From positions 1 to 42,026 of the IMG/VR virus record IMGVR_UViG_2734482779_000005: a stretch of 42,026 bases of DNA. The stretch is one strand, 5' to 3'. Below are positions 7,891 to 38,973 of this stretch, piece by piece. The DNA comes from a virus. Its lineage: Duplodnaviria > Heunggongvirae > Uroviricota > Caudoviricetes. Both the position numbers and the translations under genes were made by a program. The stretch's first letter is position 1, and every line of letters begins with the position of its first letter. The notes under the pieces were generated by a model. It was not told where the DNA came from, did no database searches, and worked only from the letters and a program-made list of their open reading frames with translations.

Positions 7891-8565
7891 TTAGGCCTTT
7901 ATTTTGTATCTTCTTGGTTTTCCTGAGAAAATTACTGTACCAATTATAGAGCAATTACCGTTGATCTTAATGTAAGGTTCAGGCCAGTTTGGGTTTAATG
8001 CTTTGAGGTAACGCTGTGTTCCATCTTCTATCAACCGCTTAAAGGTGGTTTCGCCTGTATCGTGCATCAATGCAATAACGTCGTCACCGTGGCAGGCAGG
8101 GACTTCAGGATCTACAAAAATCATGTCTCCCGGGCGGTACTCATCAATCATTGAATCACCAATCACCCGCAAGATATAAGTCATTTCGCCACAGGGTACA
8201 GGGCAGGGATAAGTTTCTGCTGTGCTCAAATCAACCTCAGAATAGCCAACTTCTTTCCATGCTCCGGCCTGTACCCATGATATGACAGGGACTAACGTTA
8301 TTTGTTTGTTAGTAATTGAAACATCAGGTTTTTTTGTGATGTTTGTTGTCTGGTGTTCTTGATCAAGCCATCCGACAGGCAGGTCGAAACATTTTTCGAT
8401 GTGCCGTGCCATGCTGTCACCGATATTTTTAGTAGCACCATCTCCCATAAACCTGCTGGTCTGGGTTGGCTCGCGATCAATCATGGTGGCAAAGGAAGAA
8501 TTCCCGCCAACACCATCTCTCAGTTTTCTGGCGTTAGACCGCCGGATGTCATGGACTGTTTTCAT
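7891..8565 (-). CDS. cI: CI-like prophage repressor (HTH N-domain plus S24/LexA-like autoproteolytic C-domain)
   Basis: 224 aa; C-terminal region (…LRVIGDSMIDEY…GDMIFVDPEVPACHGDDVIAL…) has the Ser/Lys peptidase S24 architecture; divergent from a Cro-like gene across an operator-bearing intergenic region. Confidence 0.8.
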   Translation of the reverse strand: MKTVHDIRRSNARKLRDGVGGNSSFATMIDREPTQTSRFMGDGATKNIGDSMARHIEKCFDLPVGWLDQEHQTTNITKKPDVSITNKQITLVPVISWVQAGAWKEVGYSEVDLSTAETYPCPVPCGEMTYILRVIGDSMIDEYRPGDMIFVDPEVPACHGDDVIALMHDTGETTFKRLIEDGTQRYLKALNPNWPEPYIKINGNCSIIGTVIFSGKPRRYKIKA

Positions 8566-15007: not shown

Positions 15008-15024
15008 TTTTGTGGAGAAAGTTG

Positions 15025-15390
15025 ATGCGTGATATTCAAATGGTTCTGGATCGTTGGGGAGCATGGGCGGCGAGTGATAGTTCTGGAGTAGACTATTCGC
15101 CTATAGCTGCTGGGTTTAAGGGGCTTCTTCCCTACACAAGCAAAACACGTCAGGCTTGTTCAGATAGTGATGCATTAATTATTGAAGGTTGTCTTGCTCG
15201 TCTAAAGCAAAAAAAGCCAGATGAGCACTCGCTGCTTGTGGCACATTATTTATACAGAATATCCAAGCGTAAGATTGCAAAGGTGCGTGGAAAGGATGAA
15301 AAATTGGTACGCATAGAAATACAACTAGCCGAAGGATTTATTGATGGTTGCCTTTCAATGTTGGATGTTAACCTTGAAATGGACGCTTAG
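15025..15390 (+). CDS. Q: Late-gene antitermination protein Q
   Basis: MRDIQMVLDRWGAWAA…IAAGFKGLLP matches the phage antiterminator Q family; ATG 15025 with GGAGA 6 nt upstream. Confidence 0.75.
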   Translation: MRDIQMVLDRWGAWAASDSSGVDYSPIAAGFKGLLPYTSKTRQACSDSDALIIEGCLARLKQKKPDEHSLLVAHYLYRISKRKIAKVRGKDEKLVRIEIQLAEGFIDGCLSMLDVNLEMDA

Positions 15391-15396
15391 GGTTGC

Positions 15397-15426
15397 ACAG
15401 GTTGGCCCCATATGAGGCCAACCTGT
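15397..15426. other. Perfect 11-bp stem-loop (acaggttggcc / ggccaacctgt, 8-nt loop) with no U-tract, between convergent Q and the inverted cassette
   Basis: Read directly; neither strand has a following T-run. Confidence 0.5.
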
Positions 15427-15875
15427 CACAAGTGGGGGAAGATTTTTCGTAACACTAACCAACACCTTCCGAAGGTATATAGCGAAATTATAAGGGAGGA
15501 TAAGCCTAACAGTATGAACAGGAAATCAATAGGTTTGCCCGCAACAATAACATCATCAGGTAGAAACATCGCTATCAATGGAAATATACACGCGACGATG
15601 AGAGTTAACCCTGTTGAAAGTAATCTATTTACCAGAGTTGGTAACACGTTGTTTTGCTTAAGGGCATTAATTGCTCCTTCCTTATCGCTGTTTGCACTAC
15701 TAAATATAGATATTGCAGCCAGAACAAAACCAAACAGGATGCCTGATATAGTCGAGAGCACCCCCGCTGTTGTGAGTACGTCAGCATGCTTCATCGGTTT
15801 AAACAGTTTTGTCGCTGCATAGGTCAACAGAATCCAGAGGACGCATTTCCAGAGAAAAGTGGCTAATTCTCTCAT
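15426..15875 (-). CDS. Four-TM small membrane protein, candidate RexB-like partner
   Basis: 149 aa from the ATG preceded by GGAGGA; four hydrophobic segments (LATFLWKCVLWILLTYAATKLF, VLTTAGVLSTISGILFGFVLAAISIF, LLSTGLTLIVACIFPLIAMFL, IDFLFILLGLSSLIISLYTF); 9-nt gap to the upstream gene. Confidence 0.45.
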   Translation of the reverse strand: MRELATFLWKCVLWILLTYAATKLFKPMKHADVLTTAGVLSTISGILFGFVLAAISIFSSANSDKEGAINALKQNNVLPTLVNRLLSTGLTLIVACIFPLIAMFLPDDVIVAGKPIDFLFILLGLSSLIISLYTFGRCWLVLRKIFPHL

Positions 15876-15896
15876 TGTGTCCTCCATGCTTGGTTA

Positions 15897-16838
15897 TTAG
15901 TCTCTGCTAGCGAGCTCATACTGTGCAAGATAGTTCGCGTTATCAATTTTAGCAGATATCATCGCCGTTCTGATATCAGAATCGGATGGATAACCGCTTT
16001 TGACAATGATTGTCTTTGTACTGACCAATACTTGGTCAAGTAGACTTTTGGGCGTTCTATTGGATGGCTCTGTTACATCAATTTTTTTAATTTTTAGACC
16101 TCCAGAACCTTTTGGAAAAAGTTCAAGTAGTTCCTTAATAGCATCGGTGACAGAAGTTTTTAGATAGTTAAACCCTTGTTTTTTCGGGCGAATCCGACCT
16201 CGCATATTTAATCTTAGATGCGACCCGCCCATACCAACAACCATGTCAATAATTTCATTAGCTAAAGGGTTTTTAATCTTATAATTAGCTTTGTTAAAGT
16301 TTCTTGGAGCAGCAACTATAAGATCGAAACTACGTAGGATATTTCCGTCCTCAAGCAGTTCCTTCATGCTCTCTTGTTTCCAAATGGCTTCAAAAGTGAC
16401 GCTTTTTAAATCAGTTTTGTTATACAAAATGAATGCCAGATCATTTACTTTGGGCCCTATATGGTTGAGGGTCATAGCTAATAAGTCCGTTTCGTAGTAA
16501 TAGATAAAATATGTTCTTTCAACTACAGAATCTTTATCATTTAAAGGAATTGTTCTCTCACTACCTGTAGCATCCTCGATGAACGGTAGTAGGCATTCCC
16601 TTCTCCACGATACGTAACCAAAGTAACATTGCAGTGTGGTATCTTTTTGAAGAATAACTAACTTTAACCCTCGATTTGGGGTGTCTGTTGTGTAAGTTAT
16701 TGGAAAAGTTACAGTATCTGCTGTGGTCATTTGCTCAAAGGCTAGTTTTGCAGCAGATGTGCCATCTTTTTTGCTTCCATTACCAGTGAAAAAACCAACT
16801 CTCACTCGCCTGGTTTTATTCTTATTTTCTGTACTCAT
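15897..16838 (-). CDS. 313-aa soluble protein, candidate RexA-like exclusion protein
   Basis: AT-rich ORF antisense to the late operon; YYYETDLLAMTLNHIGPKVNDLAFIL and FDLIVAAPRNF resemble lambda RexA FVEGDTIGFARTVFGPTTSDLTDFL and FDSLDIVIKPKF as I recall them; needs verification. Confidence 0.4.
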   Translation of the reverse strand: MSTENKNKTRRVRVGFFTGNGSKKDGTSAAKLAFEQMTTADTVTFPITYTTDTPNRGLKLVILQKDTTLQCYFGYVSWRRECLLPFIEDATGSERTIPLNDKDSVVERTYFIYYYETDLLAMTLNHIGPKVNDLAFILYNKTDLKSVTFEAIWKQESMKELLEDGNILRSFDLIVAAPRNFNKANYKIKNPLANEIIDMVVGMGGSHLRLNMRGRIRPKKQGFNYLKTSVTDAIKELLELFPKGSGGLKIKKIDVTEPSNRTPKSLLDQVLVSTKTIIVKSGYPSDSDIRTAMISAKIDNANYLAQYELASRD

Positions 16839-16962
16839 TATCGATCCGAAATAATTTTAGCAACCGTGTGAAAAATACAACAAAAAAAAGAGGAAATCAT
16901 TAGCGCGGTCCGCAAAAAACATTGTAATCTGTTAAGAGTGGTTACTTCGCCACACAGCTTAA

Positions 16963-16987
16963 ACCCGCCGTCGAGCGGGTTTTGTCG
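16963..16987 (+). terminator. tR'-like rho-independent terminator upstream of the lysis cassette
   Basis: acccgc-cgtcga-gcgggt followed by tttgtcgttt; position matches the Q-antiterminated tR' of lambdoid late operons. Confidence 0.45.
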
Positions 16988-17134
16988 TTTCTGTGGCTGG
17001 GGATTCGTTGGTCCTGGCCTATTCCGCAGTTCTCCATCGGTTCGGCTTCTTTGATGTTTCCGCTTCTGATTTGCGGTACATGATGTTCCCTCAATTTGCA
17101 CCTGCTGTATCAGCAAGGTGAGAGATAACTATAA

Positions 17135-17461
17135 ATGCCTCATAACCAAAATACCTGGCTGGAGTTGCTCCAGAGCTGGTGGCGTGGAGACACCCCGCTG
17201 GGCGCAGTGATTATGTCGATCGTTATGGCTGGTTTGCGCATCGCCTATTTTGGCGGTGGTGGTGGCTGGAAGCGAAAAACGCTCGAGATTTTGCTATGTG
17301 GCGCTCTGACGCTGACCTTTGCATCCGCTCTTGAGTATGTCGGATGGCCTAAATCGCTTTCTGTTGCCATTGGGGGTGGCGTGGGGCTGATCGGTGTCGA
17401 TGCTATTCGTGGGGCTGCAATGCGAGTAATCGGTAACAAATTTGGTAGCTCGAAGGAGTAA
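17135..17461 (+). CDS. Holin (lambda S-like class I)
   Basis: 108 aa with three hydrophobic segments and a charged C-terminus; LRIAYFGGGGG and VGLIGVDAIRGAAMRVIGNKF parallel lambda S LRGRYNGG and [20 protein letters not shown]. Confidence 0.65.
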   Translation: MPHNQNTWLELLQSWWRGDTPLGAVIMSIVMAGLRIAYFGGGGGWKRKTLEILLCGALTLTFASALEYVGWPKSLSVAIGGGVGLIGVDAIRGAAMRVIGNKFGSSKE

Positions 17462-30515: not shown

Positions 30516-30614
30516 TGTACAAAATGATTAATGTGTTTTTGTCTGGCATAATTTGGGTTTTCAGCTTTAAGTAGTTAATATAATCATTCCTTACAAATGA
30601 TTGAAGGGATGATT

Positions 30615-31109
30615 ATGCGTATCTTTGTTTTTTTTATATCTGCACTTTTATCTTTTAACTTGGCTGCGGAAGAGTGTAAGTTCAGCTTTAATGAGTCAGA
30701 ATTAATCTCTTCTATAGGTATTGCACCAGTTAAGCAAGAGATAATAAAGGATGAAGGAATAACTAAGCGGCAATATGAATTCAGAAGAGAATTATCTTCT
30801 GAAGAAATGCTTAGTGATGACGCTGATGAAAAATATGAGCCGCAGTTTTATATATCTGTTTATAATCCATCATGCCCACAAAAGGTTATTGTTTGGTTTT
30901 TCAAAGACAATAAAAACACAATGGATTTAAGTAATGAGGTCCTTGCTGGTAGAGCGTTCAAGTATTTAACTGGTGTTAATGAAAGTATTTTTGAAAATAA
31001 AATGAAAAAGTTTTTAAAGGTACAGTCATTTGAATCTTTTGATGAAAGGACAGATTCTAAATTTATAAAGAGTGGTAATATTTATTCCATTGATGTTCAA
31101 CTCAGATAG
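30615..31109 (+). CDS. AT-rich moron: secreted protein of unknown function (164 aa with signal peptide)
   Basis: Signal peptide MRIFVFFISALLSFNLAA|EE; AGGGA SD; perfect TATAAT at about 30577; appears markedly more AT-rich than the flanking tail genes. Confidence 0.55.
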   Translation: MRIFVFFISALLSFNLAAEECKFSFNESELISSIGIAPVKQEIIKDEGITKRQYEFRRELSSEEMLSDDADEKYEPQFYISVYNPSCPQKVIVWFFKDNKNTMDLSNEVLAGRAFKYLTGVNESIFENKMKKFLKVQSFESFDERTDSKFIKSGNIYSIDVQLR

Positions 31110-36850: not shown

Positions 36851-37291
36851 ATGCAGAAATATATTTTCAGTGCTGATAAAAATGCGTTTTTCCCTGTGGA
36901 GCTTAAAATTGCTTATCAGGAAGCGGGGAAATGGCCTGATGATGGAATCGAAATTGACGACACTGTTGCCGCCGAATTTATGAAGGAAGCACCAGAAGGA
37001 AAATACAGAGGTGTCATCGACGGAATGCCAGCATGGATTGATATTCCACCGCCAACTCATGAGGAACAAATTGCCGCAGCCGAACTGGAAAAGCAGCAAT
37101 TGATTAATCAGGTCAACGAATACATAAACAGTAAGCAATGGCCTGGTAAAGCGGCGATTGGTCGCCTGAAAGGTGAGGAACTGGCGCAATATAATTTGTG
37201 GCTGGATTACCTGGACGCACTGGAACTGGTCGATACTTCCGGTGCGCCAGATATTGAATGGCCTACGCCTCCGGCAGTTCAGGCCAGATGA
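36851..37291 (+). CDS. Tail fibre assembly protein (Tfa, current orientation)
   Basis: 146 aa; MQKYIFSADKNAFFP… and C-terminal …WPTPP… are typical of Tfa chaperones. Confidence 0.7.
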   Translation: MQKYIFSADKNAFFPVELKIAYQEAGKWPDDGIEIDDTVAAEFMKEAPEGKYRGVIDGMPAWIDIPPPTHEEQIAAAELEKQQLINQVNEYINSKQWPGKAAIGRLKGEELAQYNLWLDYLDALELVDTSGAPDIEWPTPPAVQAR

Positions 37292-37865
37292 CATCCGGCG
37301 CGGTGCTGGTATCTGTTGCCGTCACCGCGTCAATGTAATCCAGCACAGCGTTAAGTCGGGTGGTTTCTGCCTGCGTCAGCTTCCGCCCGGCCTGCAATTT
37401 CAGTTGAATCAGACTGATGGAAGCCATTGCAGTATCAATCAGTGACTGACGCTGTGCTTCTGCCGCGTCTACTGCGGCGCAATGCTGTGCCTCAGTATCG
37501 GTCACCCATTTCTCACCATCCCATTTATCGAATGGCGTTAACGGGGCGATAGTGGTTGTATTTTCAGGGTAATCACCCGGAGCTGTGATTTCTTTTGATT
37601 CTCCTGTTTCAGTGCTATATACCGTTTCACCACGGTGGTCTGGCACATATACCCATGAGTTAAAATCTGCAGAACGGCAGATTACATAACCAGCTTTATA
37701 TGAGTCAGGAGCATCTAAACAGGAGCATGCCGGAATGCCGACACCCACAGCAAGATATTCAGTTGATGTGAAAATATATTCCCGTGTTTCACCATCATAG
37801 TTATATACGGTGATTTCTCCGTTGTTTATTGCGTAGCCGTCTTTCCCCAAAATAGCTTGTTCCAT
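37263..37865 (-). CDS. Alternative tail fibre assembly protein (Tfa', inverted orientation)
   Basis: 200 aa on the opposite strand within the invertible segment; C-terminus …VIWPELPEA is Tfa-like. Confidence 0.65.
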   Translation of the reverse strand: MEQAILGKDGYAINNGEITVYNYDGETREYIFTSTEYLAVGVGIPACSCLDAPDSYKAGYVICRSADFNSWVYVPDHRGETVYSTETGESKEITAPGDYPENTTTIAPLTPFDKWDGEKWVTDTEAQHCAAVDAAEAQRQSLIDTAMASISLIQLKLQAGRKLTQAETTRLNAVLDYIDAVTATDTSTAPDVIWPELPEA

Positions 37866-38333
37866 TTATGCAGTCCTCACAATGTAGTTAAATGCAATGT
37901 TGCGCGGGCGAGATTCATCACCACCGCTTGGCATCGATGTCAGCCCTGATGACGAACCAGTCCATCCATTGGCTGGACGGTTCATAAATCCTTCACCCGA
38001 TGTGTAATATTTCTTCGCGTAGATAGATGTTGTTCCTGGCACGCCACCAGCAGTTCCCCCGACTGCGCCAACGTCATCATGAACGTGCGACAAGTTTTGA
38101 CTGTTTTGATGTGAAAGCAGTGCGCGCCCACTATCGGCACCGCGCCCATCATCCCAGCCACGAATAAACTCACCACGTAAATCAGGCAATTTATTTGTCG
38201 GGTAAGCCTTTGCCAGTTCCGGGTATTCTTCAGGAGAAAAAGCCGCACCATTGCATTTCAGCCAGCCTGTTGGCGGAGTGGCTGAAGGCCACGGAACAGG
38301 CACACCAACGGGTAATGCCGAACCTTCTCCCAA
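37866..38333 (-). CDS. Alternative tail fibre C-terminal segment (promoterless, silent in this orientation)
   Basis: Reading frame continues open into the right crossover site; …PVGVPVPWPSATPPTGWLKCNGAAFSPEEYPELAKAY…LPDLRGEFIRGW… resembles the Mu/P1 fibre variable-domain pattern. Confidence 0.6.
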   Translation of the reverse strand: MGEGSALPVGVPVPWPSATPPTGWLKCNGAAFSPEEYPELAKAYPTNKLPDLRGEFIRGWDDGRGADSGRALLSHQNSQNLSHVHDDVGAVGGTAGGVPGTTSIYAKKYYTSGEGFMNRPANGWTGSSSGLTSMPSGGDESRPRNIAFNYIVRTA

Positions 38334-38409
38334 ACCAACCTTTCAAATATTTTTCTGAATCAGGTGATATTTCGCCTCTTCTCCTGTTTTTACAACAGGA
38401 GAAGCACTC

Positions 38410-38973
38410 ATGATTTACGGGTATGTTCGTGTATCAACAAATCATCAGGATACAGAGTTGCAACGTCTTGCACTTGAGTCAGCTGGCTGTGAGCGAATTT
38501 ATGAAGAATATGCCAGTGGCAGAACAGCTAATCGCCCTGTGTTAAAGGAATTAATTTCGGTGATGAAAAGTGGAGATGAGTTGATTGTCTGGAAGCTAGA
38601 TCGGATAGGGAGAAATGTGCTACATGCGCTATTGATGTTTCAAAATCTGCACGAAAAAGGCGTTAATTTTCGGAGTATTACAGATGGTGTAGACCTGAAA
38701 ACAGCAAGTGGTCGCTATAATTTCCGTAATATTCTTTCTGCTGCGCAGTATGAATCTGATTTGAATAGCGAGCGAACTTTAGCTGGTTTGGCTATTGCCA
38801 GATCCAAAGGCCGGATTGGTGGGCGTAGACCGAAGTTTAGCGACGAGCAGTGGCAACAGATGGGAGCGCTCATAGCGGCAGGGAAATCACGGCGTTATGT
38901 TGCACGTATCTATAACGTTGGGCTATCAACCCTATATAAACGATTTCCTGTTACTGGCATTCAAACGAAATAA
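38410..38973 (+). CDS. pin: Serine DNA invertase (Pin/Gin/Hin/Cin family)
   Basis: 187 aa; N-terminal MIYGYVRVSTNHQDTELQ with catalytic-serine context and C-terminal HTH; adjacent to the invertible segment. Confidence 0.85.
   Translation: MIYGYVRVSTNHQDTELQRLALESAGCERIYEEYASGRTANRPVLKELISVMKSGDELIVWKLDRIGRNVLHALLMFQNLHEKGVNFRSITDGVDLKTASGRYNFRNILSAAQYESDLNSERTLAGLAIARSKGRIGGRRPKFSDEQWQQMGALIAAGKSRRYVARIYNVGLSTLYKRFPVTGIQTK

Follow-up and report, generated by a model that had tools for sequence, protein, structure and literature searches.

In phage lambda the rexAB genes are located downstream of cI and are transcribed from PRM. RexA (PF15969) and RexB (PF15968; PDB 8TWQ for the system) are known for phage exclusion, but RexA also shifts the balance of the CI-Cro switch without need of RexB, and the authors of that study questioned whether exclusion, perhaps incidental, is the primary role (PMC11077077). 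Remote RexAB-like systems are already on record. RexABpp of P. putida (PP_5643/PP_5644) lies near a CI-like repressor (PMC12894663). The Sucellos genes sclA and sclB occupy cassette 68 of the V. cholerae superintegron, have their own promoter and are both required, and SclB is a predicted pore former (bioRxiv 10.1101/2024.07.02.601686). The Sucellos proteins show predicted structural likeness to RexAB and are missed by the Pfam Rex domains; their homologues were found mostly in prophages, 'often in Salmonella' (bioRxiv 10.1101/2024.07.02.601686). Among actinobacteriophages, Sbash gp30/31, CarolAnn gp44/43 and Butters gp30/31 are prophage gene pairs whose soluble and membrane products bring about the exclusion of other phages. 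Their RexA homologues form dimers and show non-specific DNA binding. These pairs belong to Gram-positive hosts and to immunity-linked loci, and in Butters the roles of the two proteins are reversed.

The window analysed here, a stretch of 42,026 nt of DNA from an E. coli prophage, carries two adjacent genes that, judging by homology, are likely to form a RexAB-type module with two components, acting in phage exclusion by abortive infection. The encoded proteins are ~12-14 % identical to lambda RexA and RexB, and the curated models for the lambda proteins fail on them. Unlike lambda rexAB, the cassette is located between the antiterminator gene Q and the late promoter PR', runs counter to the late genes and has an upstream region of its own. 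The same location sets it apart from RexABpp, to which it is likened by description, from Sucellos with its integron cassette, and from the immunity-linked pairs of the actinobacteriophages. No canonical rexAB is present in the window. A cI-like gene (7891-8565) is followed by unrelated genes; the cassette is thus not found in the immunity region downstream of cI.

The cargo segment (15391-16900) is a low-GC insert of ~1.5 kb reaching from the Q stop codon to a conserved block on the PR' side. Its AT-richness, already pointed out in a preliminary description of this DNA, is evident from a GC content of 39.1 %, the flanks having 52-54 % and the window as a whole 50.2 %. The two minus-strand open reading frames reported there are indeed present. 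The large gene (15897-16838, minus strand; PHROG 7651) encodes a soluble, RexA-like protein of 313 amino acids, and the small gene (15426-15875 including the stop codon, minus strand; PHROG 8552) encodes a RexB-like membrane partner of 149 amino acids. In its longest form the small reading frame extends over 15426-15887 (153 amino acids), with an internal ATG at 15875 giving the 149-residue product. Since homologues measure 145-149 amino acids, the start was placed at 15875 and not at 15887. The intergenic spacer then amounts to 21 nt (15876-15896) instead of the 9 nt given earlier, a value that fits only the upstream in-frame ATG at 15887, which itself overlaps the ribosome-binding site. This GGAGGA site was read from the sequence at 15880-15885 (minus strand) inside the spacer, 4 nt upstream of the start codon. 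Both flanking genes were confirmed: Q, of the short PF06530 type (15010-15390, plus strand; Pfam E 2.7e-51), ends at 15390 and is convergent with the cassette, and the holin gene begins at 17135.

Between Q and the small gene, an 11-bp GC-rich hairpin without a U tract (15397-15426) had been noticed. On the cassette strand it folds with -27.3 kcal/mol (z -5.4), and none of 200 shuffled sequences folded equally well. Of 18 divergent cassette variants, 17 also have a hairpin at the matching position, in some of them with T tracts; the stem sequences differ. It is a candidate two-way terminator or transcript stabiliser. Upstream of the large gene, a candidate cassette promoter is located at 16854-16883 (minus strand), with a -35 box TTGTTG (16883-16878), an 18-nt spacer and a TG-extended -10 box TAAAAT (16859-16854). 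This assignment comes from a relaxed consensus scan and positional conservation only; a standard sigma-70 scan of 15300-17200 returned no promoter, and Rfam returned no RNA family for the same region. A T-rich TTG(A/T)T box kept in position across homologous loci supports the candidate. To the right of the cassette, the conserved block at 16901-16992 (plus strand) is inferred to hold PR'/qut plus the terminator tR'. The tR'-like terminator of the preliminary description was recovered by a terminator scan as a hairpin at 16961-16982 followed by a T tract. Positions 16930-16983 are invariant and the GCGGTCCGCAAA box is conserved in five phages, and also in E. coli, Pectobacterium and Yersinia. 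A relaxed scan gave no convincing assignment of the -35 and -10 hexamers of PR'. The position of PR' relative to the cassette is nevertheless settled: PR' lies on the right-hand side and points away from the cassette.

The pair is thus cargo that was inserted in inverted orientation between Q and the PR'/tR' block, preceded by an upstream region of its own and followed by a hairpin at its 3' end. In related phages this slot is occupied by stx and other morons. Shigella phage SfII carries in it the inverted two-gene cassette PDC-M53, a PADLOC candidate defence system, SfIV carries an unrelated gene pair, and in PhiR49_2 the slot is empty, the conserved box beginning 7-8 nt past the Q stop codon. 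PDC-M53 and the present cassette share the slot and the inverted two-gene layout. A relationship between the two cargoes was considered and rejected: no similarity to the PDC-M53A/B models or to SfII_50/49 was found.

Direct scans of both proteins against Pfam, NCBIfam and PADLOC gave nothing useful, and PHROGs returned only families of unknown function. The large protein matched neither the Pfam RexA model (E <= 1) nor the PADLOC RexA model, and none of its 122 relatives matched the RexA model. These models are sensitive within their own family: the PADLOC model finds lambda RexA with E 9e-110 and the Pfam model finds homologues of 23-30 % identity. Through its relatives the large protein can, however, be placed in Pfam family DUF6731 (PF20505), as a divergent member that falls below the Pfam threshold; like its membrane partner, this family carries no functional assignment. 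The Pfam model gave no match to the window protein at E <= 1 while matching 20 of 29 close relatives and 108 of the 122 wider relatives from an exhaustive search, and a profile built from the DUF6731-matching relatives recovered the window reading frame with E 2.5e-65. In a full-text literature search no paper mentioning DUF6731 and no experiment on any of its members was identified.

DUF6731 is a remote sister family of RexA. Before the profiles were deepened, BLASTP and shallow profiles gave non-significant values against RexA (E 0.49, 0.13 and 0.058), and plain HMMER comparisons of RexA and DUF6731 profiles were weak both ways. Profile-profile alignment (hhalign) of DUF6731 with the RexA family yielded 61 % probability (E 8.1e-5, 253 columns), rising to 88.6 % (E 2.6e-6, 260 columns; nulls at most 18.9) with broader profiles. 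The real scores were 38.5-49.8, compared to 14.9-16.6 for reversed profiles, at most 21.2 for column shuffles and at most 27.8 for block shuffles; all 152 null alignments remained at or below 27.8. In RexA, a globular domain of seven strands is split by an inserted dimerisation domain of four strands; the large protein has this fold as well, with 164 of the 279 RexA residues superposing. Next in its match list rank CHL4, IML3, CENP-N and RdgC, the published fold relatives of RexA. Foldseek returned no match against the PDB, and phmmer and hmmsearch returned no relevant match against PDB sequences. Two motifs had earlier been noted as RexA-like. The first (E-x-D...GP...DL...FL) is real: all comparisons gave it as the top local match, and its register agrees with that of the full-length alignment. 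The second (FD-L-IV...P-x-F) does not keep the register of the profile alignment and is probably spurious.

Like RexB, to which it is remotely homologous, the 149-residue protein has four TM segments. Hydropathy analysis bore out the four membrane segments proposed for it (~4-22, 39-57, 85-103 and 116-136), the first of which stays below a strict threshold. A four-TM protein of ~145 amino acids is thus encoded directly downstream of the sensor gene, and it closely resembles RexB in length (149 and 144 amino acids) and in TM spacing. The Pfam and PADLOC RexB models did not match the small protein; distant partners reached 12.6-13.9 bits with the Pfam model (cutoff 27), these weak matches being in register. 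A shallow partner profile aligned with four RexB sequences at E 0.085, out of register. The deeper partner family aligned with the RexB family in register over 89-93 columns, with hhalign probabilities of 91.4 % and 93.4 % (E 9.1e-7 and 2.6e-7). For both proteins the best profile-profile probabilities (88-93 %) stay below 95 %. Because 20-column block shuffles of RexB score up to 39, the RexB signal resides largely in one TM2-plus-loop motif. Furthermore, a plain RexB-family HMM matched 13 distant partner reading frames and no other reading frame in those loci. The distant partners are in turn homologous to the small protein of the window (99.1 %, E 1.6e-18), and the partner HMM finds the small reading frame of the window with E 2.9e-57.

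The preliminary description regarded the cassette as a divergent module of the RexA/RexB kind in a non-canonical location, and independent tests support this view for both halves. The relationship is one of superfamily-level homology and not of family membership, because the Rex models of Pfam and PADLOC give no match.

The two genes are an obligate pair, tightly spaced or overlapping, across Proteobacteria. The partner gene adjoins the large gene in 79 of 80 close, viral loci and in 37 of 40 distant proteobacterial loci, and the pairing is not due to chance. A short-type Q directly follows the small gene in 74 of the 80 related loci. The pair is also found without any Q nearby (L092-L095), and is conserved beside differing lysis modules. 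It is carried by ~1.3 % of complete E. coli genomes (73/5,426), corresponds to orf53/orf54 of the cdt-converting phage cdtI, and is present in prophages of Salmonella, Yersinia, Serratia, Citrobacter and Pectobacterium. DUF6731 pairs also occur in Vibrio, Shewanella and Salmonella prophages. At a clustering level of 50 % identity the exhaustive search yielded ~185 clusters; Gamma-, Beta- and Zetaproteobacteria and Magnetococcales all contribute related loci.

The pair probably protects the lysogen from other phages, since its proteins are very distant relatives of lambda RexA and RexB. In the lysogen it would be expressed from a promoter of its own, the candidate being 16854-16883. Upon infection by another phage, a dimer of the soluble protein may sense a phage-made protein or a protein-DNA intermediate and, once triggered, activate the membrane partner. 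The latter would form a channel or pore, and the resulting collapse of the membrane potential or growth stop would abort the infection. This proposed scheme of a sensor and a membrane effector is that described for lambda RexAB, RexABpp of P. putida and Sucellos of V. cholerae.

Alternatively, the pair might mainly serve the development of the prophage. The soluble protein would then be a DNA-binding protein that tunes the transition from lysogeny to the lytic cycle, here perhaps through late-gene timing beside Q and PR', with its partner as antagonist and exclusion as a by-product. The RexB-independent effect of lambda RexA on the CI-Cro switch and the doubt about the primacy of exclusion (PMC11077077) speak for such a role, as does the direct abutment of the cassette on Q and PR', seen in 74 of the 80 related loci. 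However, the pair is also maintained in loci without Q and in distant Proteobacteria, and the slot carries unrelated candidate defence cargo in other phages. The cassette moreover has the features of a moron, being of low GC content and on the strand opposite to the late operon. A primarily developmental role is hence considered unlikely.

Rather less probable still is a reversal of the logic, in which the soluble protein is toxic and is sequestered by the membrane protein until infection occurs. Mycobacteriophage Butters provides the precedent, its gp30/31 having been described as Rex-like with reversed roles (PMC12894663), and the sequences by themselves would allow either partner to be the effector. 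The membrane protein nonetheless acts as effector in Sucellos and in all but one of the five Rex-like systems described. In the present family the conservation of the membrane partner is as strict as that of the sensor, and the partner has the TM2-loop motif in common with RexB. Least probable is a non-defence moron or lysis-related membrane function sharing only an ancient fold with RexA: the cassette adjoins the lysis genes, no curated defence model matches the pair, and RdgC and kinetochore proteins use the RexA fold for other purposes (PMC11077077), but both proteins are related to the matching Rex partner in the same gene order and at the same sizes, and the pair lies on the strand opposite to the lysis genes and is kept beside differing lysis modules.

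By description the cassette resembles Sucellos as a pair of genes with structural likeness to RexAB that escapes the Pfam Rex domains and is enriched in prophages, features that do not by themselves prove identity. In BLASTP, Vibrio-type DUF6731 proteins can be linked with those of the Salmonella and E. coli type, the identities being 25-28 %. Sucellos and the DUF6731 pair may be one family. The opposite proposal, which we put forward only tentatively and regard as rather doubtful, is that DUF6731 and its four-TM partner constitute a large unrecognised branch of RexAB, distinct from Sucellos and RexABpp, that has settled in the Q/PR' slot of enterobacterial lambdoid phages and is perhaps self-immune. 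Its convergence with Q may provide such self-immunity. Upon induction, early-right transcription reading through past Q and the U-tract-less hairpin would enter the cassette in antisense direction and silence it, sparing the prophage from aborting its own lytic cycle.

A testable function can thus be proposed for two genes annotated as "hypothetical". The pair is missed by the PADLOC, Pfam and NCBIfam models used here, and the comparison connects DUF6731 and its unnamed four-TM partner with the earliest phage-exclusion system known. In phages with a short-type Q, the Q/PR' junction emerges as a site where inverted two-gene cassettes are exchanged, and as a place to seek further defence systems.

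Between the end of Q at 15390 (PF06530, E 2.7e-51) and the start of the lambda-type holin gene at 17135, two ORFs were found on the minus strand, at the positions where the preliminary description had placed them. The large ORF (15897-16838) encodes a protein of 313 aa. The small ORF (15426-15887) encodes 153 aa, or 149 aa when read from an internal ATG at 15875. Almost all homologues of the small protein are 145-149 aa long and a GGAGGA ribosome-binding site is located at 15880-15885; the start was therefore assigned to 15875, which results in an intergenic spacer of 21 nt. The 9-nt gap reported earlier results if translation is started at the upstream ATG at 15887, but this ATG and the ribosome-binding site overlap. 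Hydropathy analysis of the small protein revealed four hydrophobic segments, in agreement with the four-TM assignment, and their spacing is like that in lambda RexB. The suggested AT-richness of the cassette was also found (39.1% GC; window 50.2%, flanks 52-54%).

The surroundings of the gene pair are largely as first described. For the hairpin without U tract between Q and the cassette (15397-15426), the folding energy on the cassette strand is -27.3 kcal/mol (z -5.4). A stem-loop with a T tract behind it, resembling tR', is present at 16961-16982. Of 18 divergent variants, 17 have a hairpin between Q and the small gene; the stems differ, and T tracts are present in some cases. In 74 of 80 related loci the small gene faces a short PF06530-type Q in convergent orientation, an arrangement also seen in contigs of E. 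coli, Pectobacterium, Yersinia and Salmonella. On the right-hand side of the cassette, all phages compared share a conserved block that corresponds to window positions 16901-16983. In Escherichia phage PhiR49_2 this block starts 7-8 nt past the Q stop, with no cargo in between. This is presumably the position of PR', qut and tR'. The empty site and the conserved block thus identify 15391-16900 as inserted cargo that separates Q from its promoter. The location of PR' relative to the cassette had been left open; the putative promoter, recognized from the conserved block, is located on the right-hand side of the cassette, in divergent orientation to it. A 70-nt stretch at 16916-16983, covering part of the putative PR' transcript and the tR' hairpin, shows ~93% identity to lambda-like phages, e.g. 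434 and Lambda_4C10, in unannotated DNA ~2 kb from the right end of these records. Canonical rexAB is absent from the window, and the genes following the cI-like gene (7891-8565) are unrelated.

Searches of Pfam, NCBIfam and PADLOC gave no match for either protein, and PHROGs assigned them to two families without known function, 7651 and 8552. The cassette DNA is present in 73 of 5,426 complete E. coli genomes, annotated as hypothetical in every case, and no source examined provided a functional name. One full-length copy of the region from Q through the cassette to holin (99.6% identity) was also observed on plasmid record NZ_CP104632.1 of E. coli AHM21C2872I (100,861 bp; 78525-80425), which may be a phage-plasmid.

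When 1.84 billion representatives were searched exhaustively with HMMER, 185 relatives of the large protein were obtained, mostly 280-300 aa in length. Among 122 full-length relatives, 108 matched DUF6731 (PF20505) and none matched Pfam RexA. No mention of DUF6731 was found in the literature searched. Direct comparisons with RexA, by BLASTP or with shallow profiles, gave no significant result (E 0.49, 0.13 and 0.058); all three selected one common segment, residues 110-153 of the window protein and 92-138 of RexA (YYETD...GPK.NDL versus FVEGD...GPT.SDL). A deep DUF6731 profile aligned with the RexA family collinearly over the full length (253 columns, E 8.1e-5), and addition of divergent RexA homologues resulted in 88.6% probability (E 2.6e-6, 260 columns). 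Real scores were 38.5-49.8, clearly above all nulls (reversed 14.9-16.6; 90 column shuffles up to 21.2; 60 block shuffles up to 27.8). Two stretches resembling RexA had been noted in the preliminary description. In view of the full-length alignment and the low nulls, the first (E-x-D...GP...DL...FL) is real and in register; the residues of the second (FD-L-IV...P-x-F) are placed differently by the profile comparison. By these profile alignments the large protein is RexA-like. A RexA homologue of 313 aa (Pfam RexA, E 5.8e-62) was observed in another locus, L134 (1501-2442), where no downstream four-TM partner passed the filter used; this protein may represent an orphan RexA or an extended one.

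For the small protein, a first comparison of the partner profile, made against four RexB sequences, was not significant (E 0.085). Partner genes of distant DUF6731 loci and RexB genes of RexA-linked loci were then used to deepen the profiles. Homology between the distant partners and the small protein of the window was found (99.1% probability, E 1.6e-18). The pooled partner profile aligned in register with the RexB profile from the end of TM1 through TM3 (91.4%, E 9.1e-7), and the profile of distant partners alone gave 93.4% (E 2.6e-7). Nulls were 16.1 (reversed) and up to 18.9 (column shuffles); shuffles of 20-column blocks reached 39, which indicates that the signal is concentrated in a TM2-plus-loop motif. 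Among all ORFs of the 40 distant loci, a plain RexB-family HMM matched 13, every one of them a distant partner (E 4e-5 to 9e-3). The Pfam RexB model hit the partners in register at 12.6-13.9 bits, below its cutoff of 27. The small protein is thus classified as RexB-like. PADLOC Rex models recognize lambda RexA/RexB, not the DUF6731 family and its partner.

The two genes form one unit. Of 80 IMG/VR loci, 79 carry the partner behind the large gene, and in the remaining one the large gene is truncated. Of 40 distant loci, 37 contain the partner and the other three run off the contig end. These distant loci, in which the genes are tightly spaced or overlapping, originate from Aeromonas, Halomonas, Amphritea, Mariprofundaceae and Magnetococcales MAGs, Brachymonas and others. 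In four IMG/VR loci (L092-L095; 43% identity to the window protein) the pair is kept with no Q or DUF968 gene adjoining; the cassette therefore also occurs outside the Q/PR' slot. A single 90%-identity DUF6731 cluster (P0195) includes Shewanella xiamenensis, two Pseudoalteromonas strains and Vibrio natriegens (1.94-Mb contig), which implies recent horizontal transfer, as an integron cassette would predict.

The slot also carries other cargo. The cdt-converting phage cdtI (AB285204.1, 3002-4390) has a cassette variant of 45-50% identity directly after Q, annotated as hypothetical orf54 (313 aa) and orf53 (147 aa). Shigella phage SfII (KC736978.1, 834-2448) harbours a different inverted pair between Q and holin, SfII_50 (340 aa) and SfII_49 (194 aa), matching PADLOC candidate system PDC-M53A/B (E 2.1e-32 and 2.8e-54). 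A third inverted pair, SfIV_49 (356 aa) and SfIV_48 (108 aa), adjoins an IS1 transposase in Shigella phage SfIV (KC814930.1, 4165-6084); it showed no PADLOC match and no similarity to the other two cargos. In a Salmonella Poona contig (L165, 3011-6249; 75% identity) a HicA/HicB toxin-antitoxin pair is located immediately upstream of the cassette and a Bro-N gene between cassette and Q; the Q-lysis region here holds a stack of several accessory modules. Two Pectobacterium loci (L003, 3843-4691; L004, 2852-3712) carry a gene for a non-specific nuclease (Endonuclease_NS) between cassette and holin on the late-operon strand. Elsewhere in the window, a 170-aa ORF without Pfam match (30597-31109), in a sharp low-GC island (32% GC) amid the tail genes, may be another moron. 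The region 36851-38973 looks like a Gin/Cin-type invertible host-range switch, with a resolvase/invertase gene (Resolvase and HTH_7; 38410-38973) beside oppositely oriented tail-fibre assembly genes, among which one matching Caudo_TAP (37263-37865).

Remote RexAB-like pairs have already been established through structure: Sbash, CarolAnn, Butters, RexABpp of P. putida and Sucellos of V. cholerae. The Sucellos pair is described as RexAB-like, unmatched by Pfam Rex domains, mostly present in prophages and "often in Salmonella" (10.1101/2024.07.02.601686). Pairs of the DUF6731 type were found in Vibrio natriegens, Shewanella and Pseudoalteromonas and also in Salmonella prophages, and BLASTP links the Vibrio-type members to the Salmonella/E. 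coli prophage type (25-28% identity). Because of this occurrence and this link, Sucellos may be the DUF6731 family, a likeness drawn from description and host range. Fold, homology, gene pairing and cassette position were obtained computationally; we infer expression in the lysogen, the trigger and effector activity. Judging from homology and from the analogy to lambda RexAB and its experimentally studied remote relatives (PMC12894663; 10.1101/2024.07.02.601686), the pair most likely is a sensor with a membrane effector: a soluble dimeric sensor would activate the membrane protein upon infection, which would depolarise or permeabilise the membrane and thereby abort the infection.
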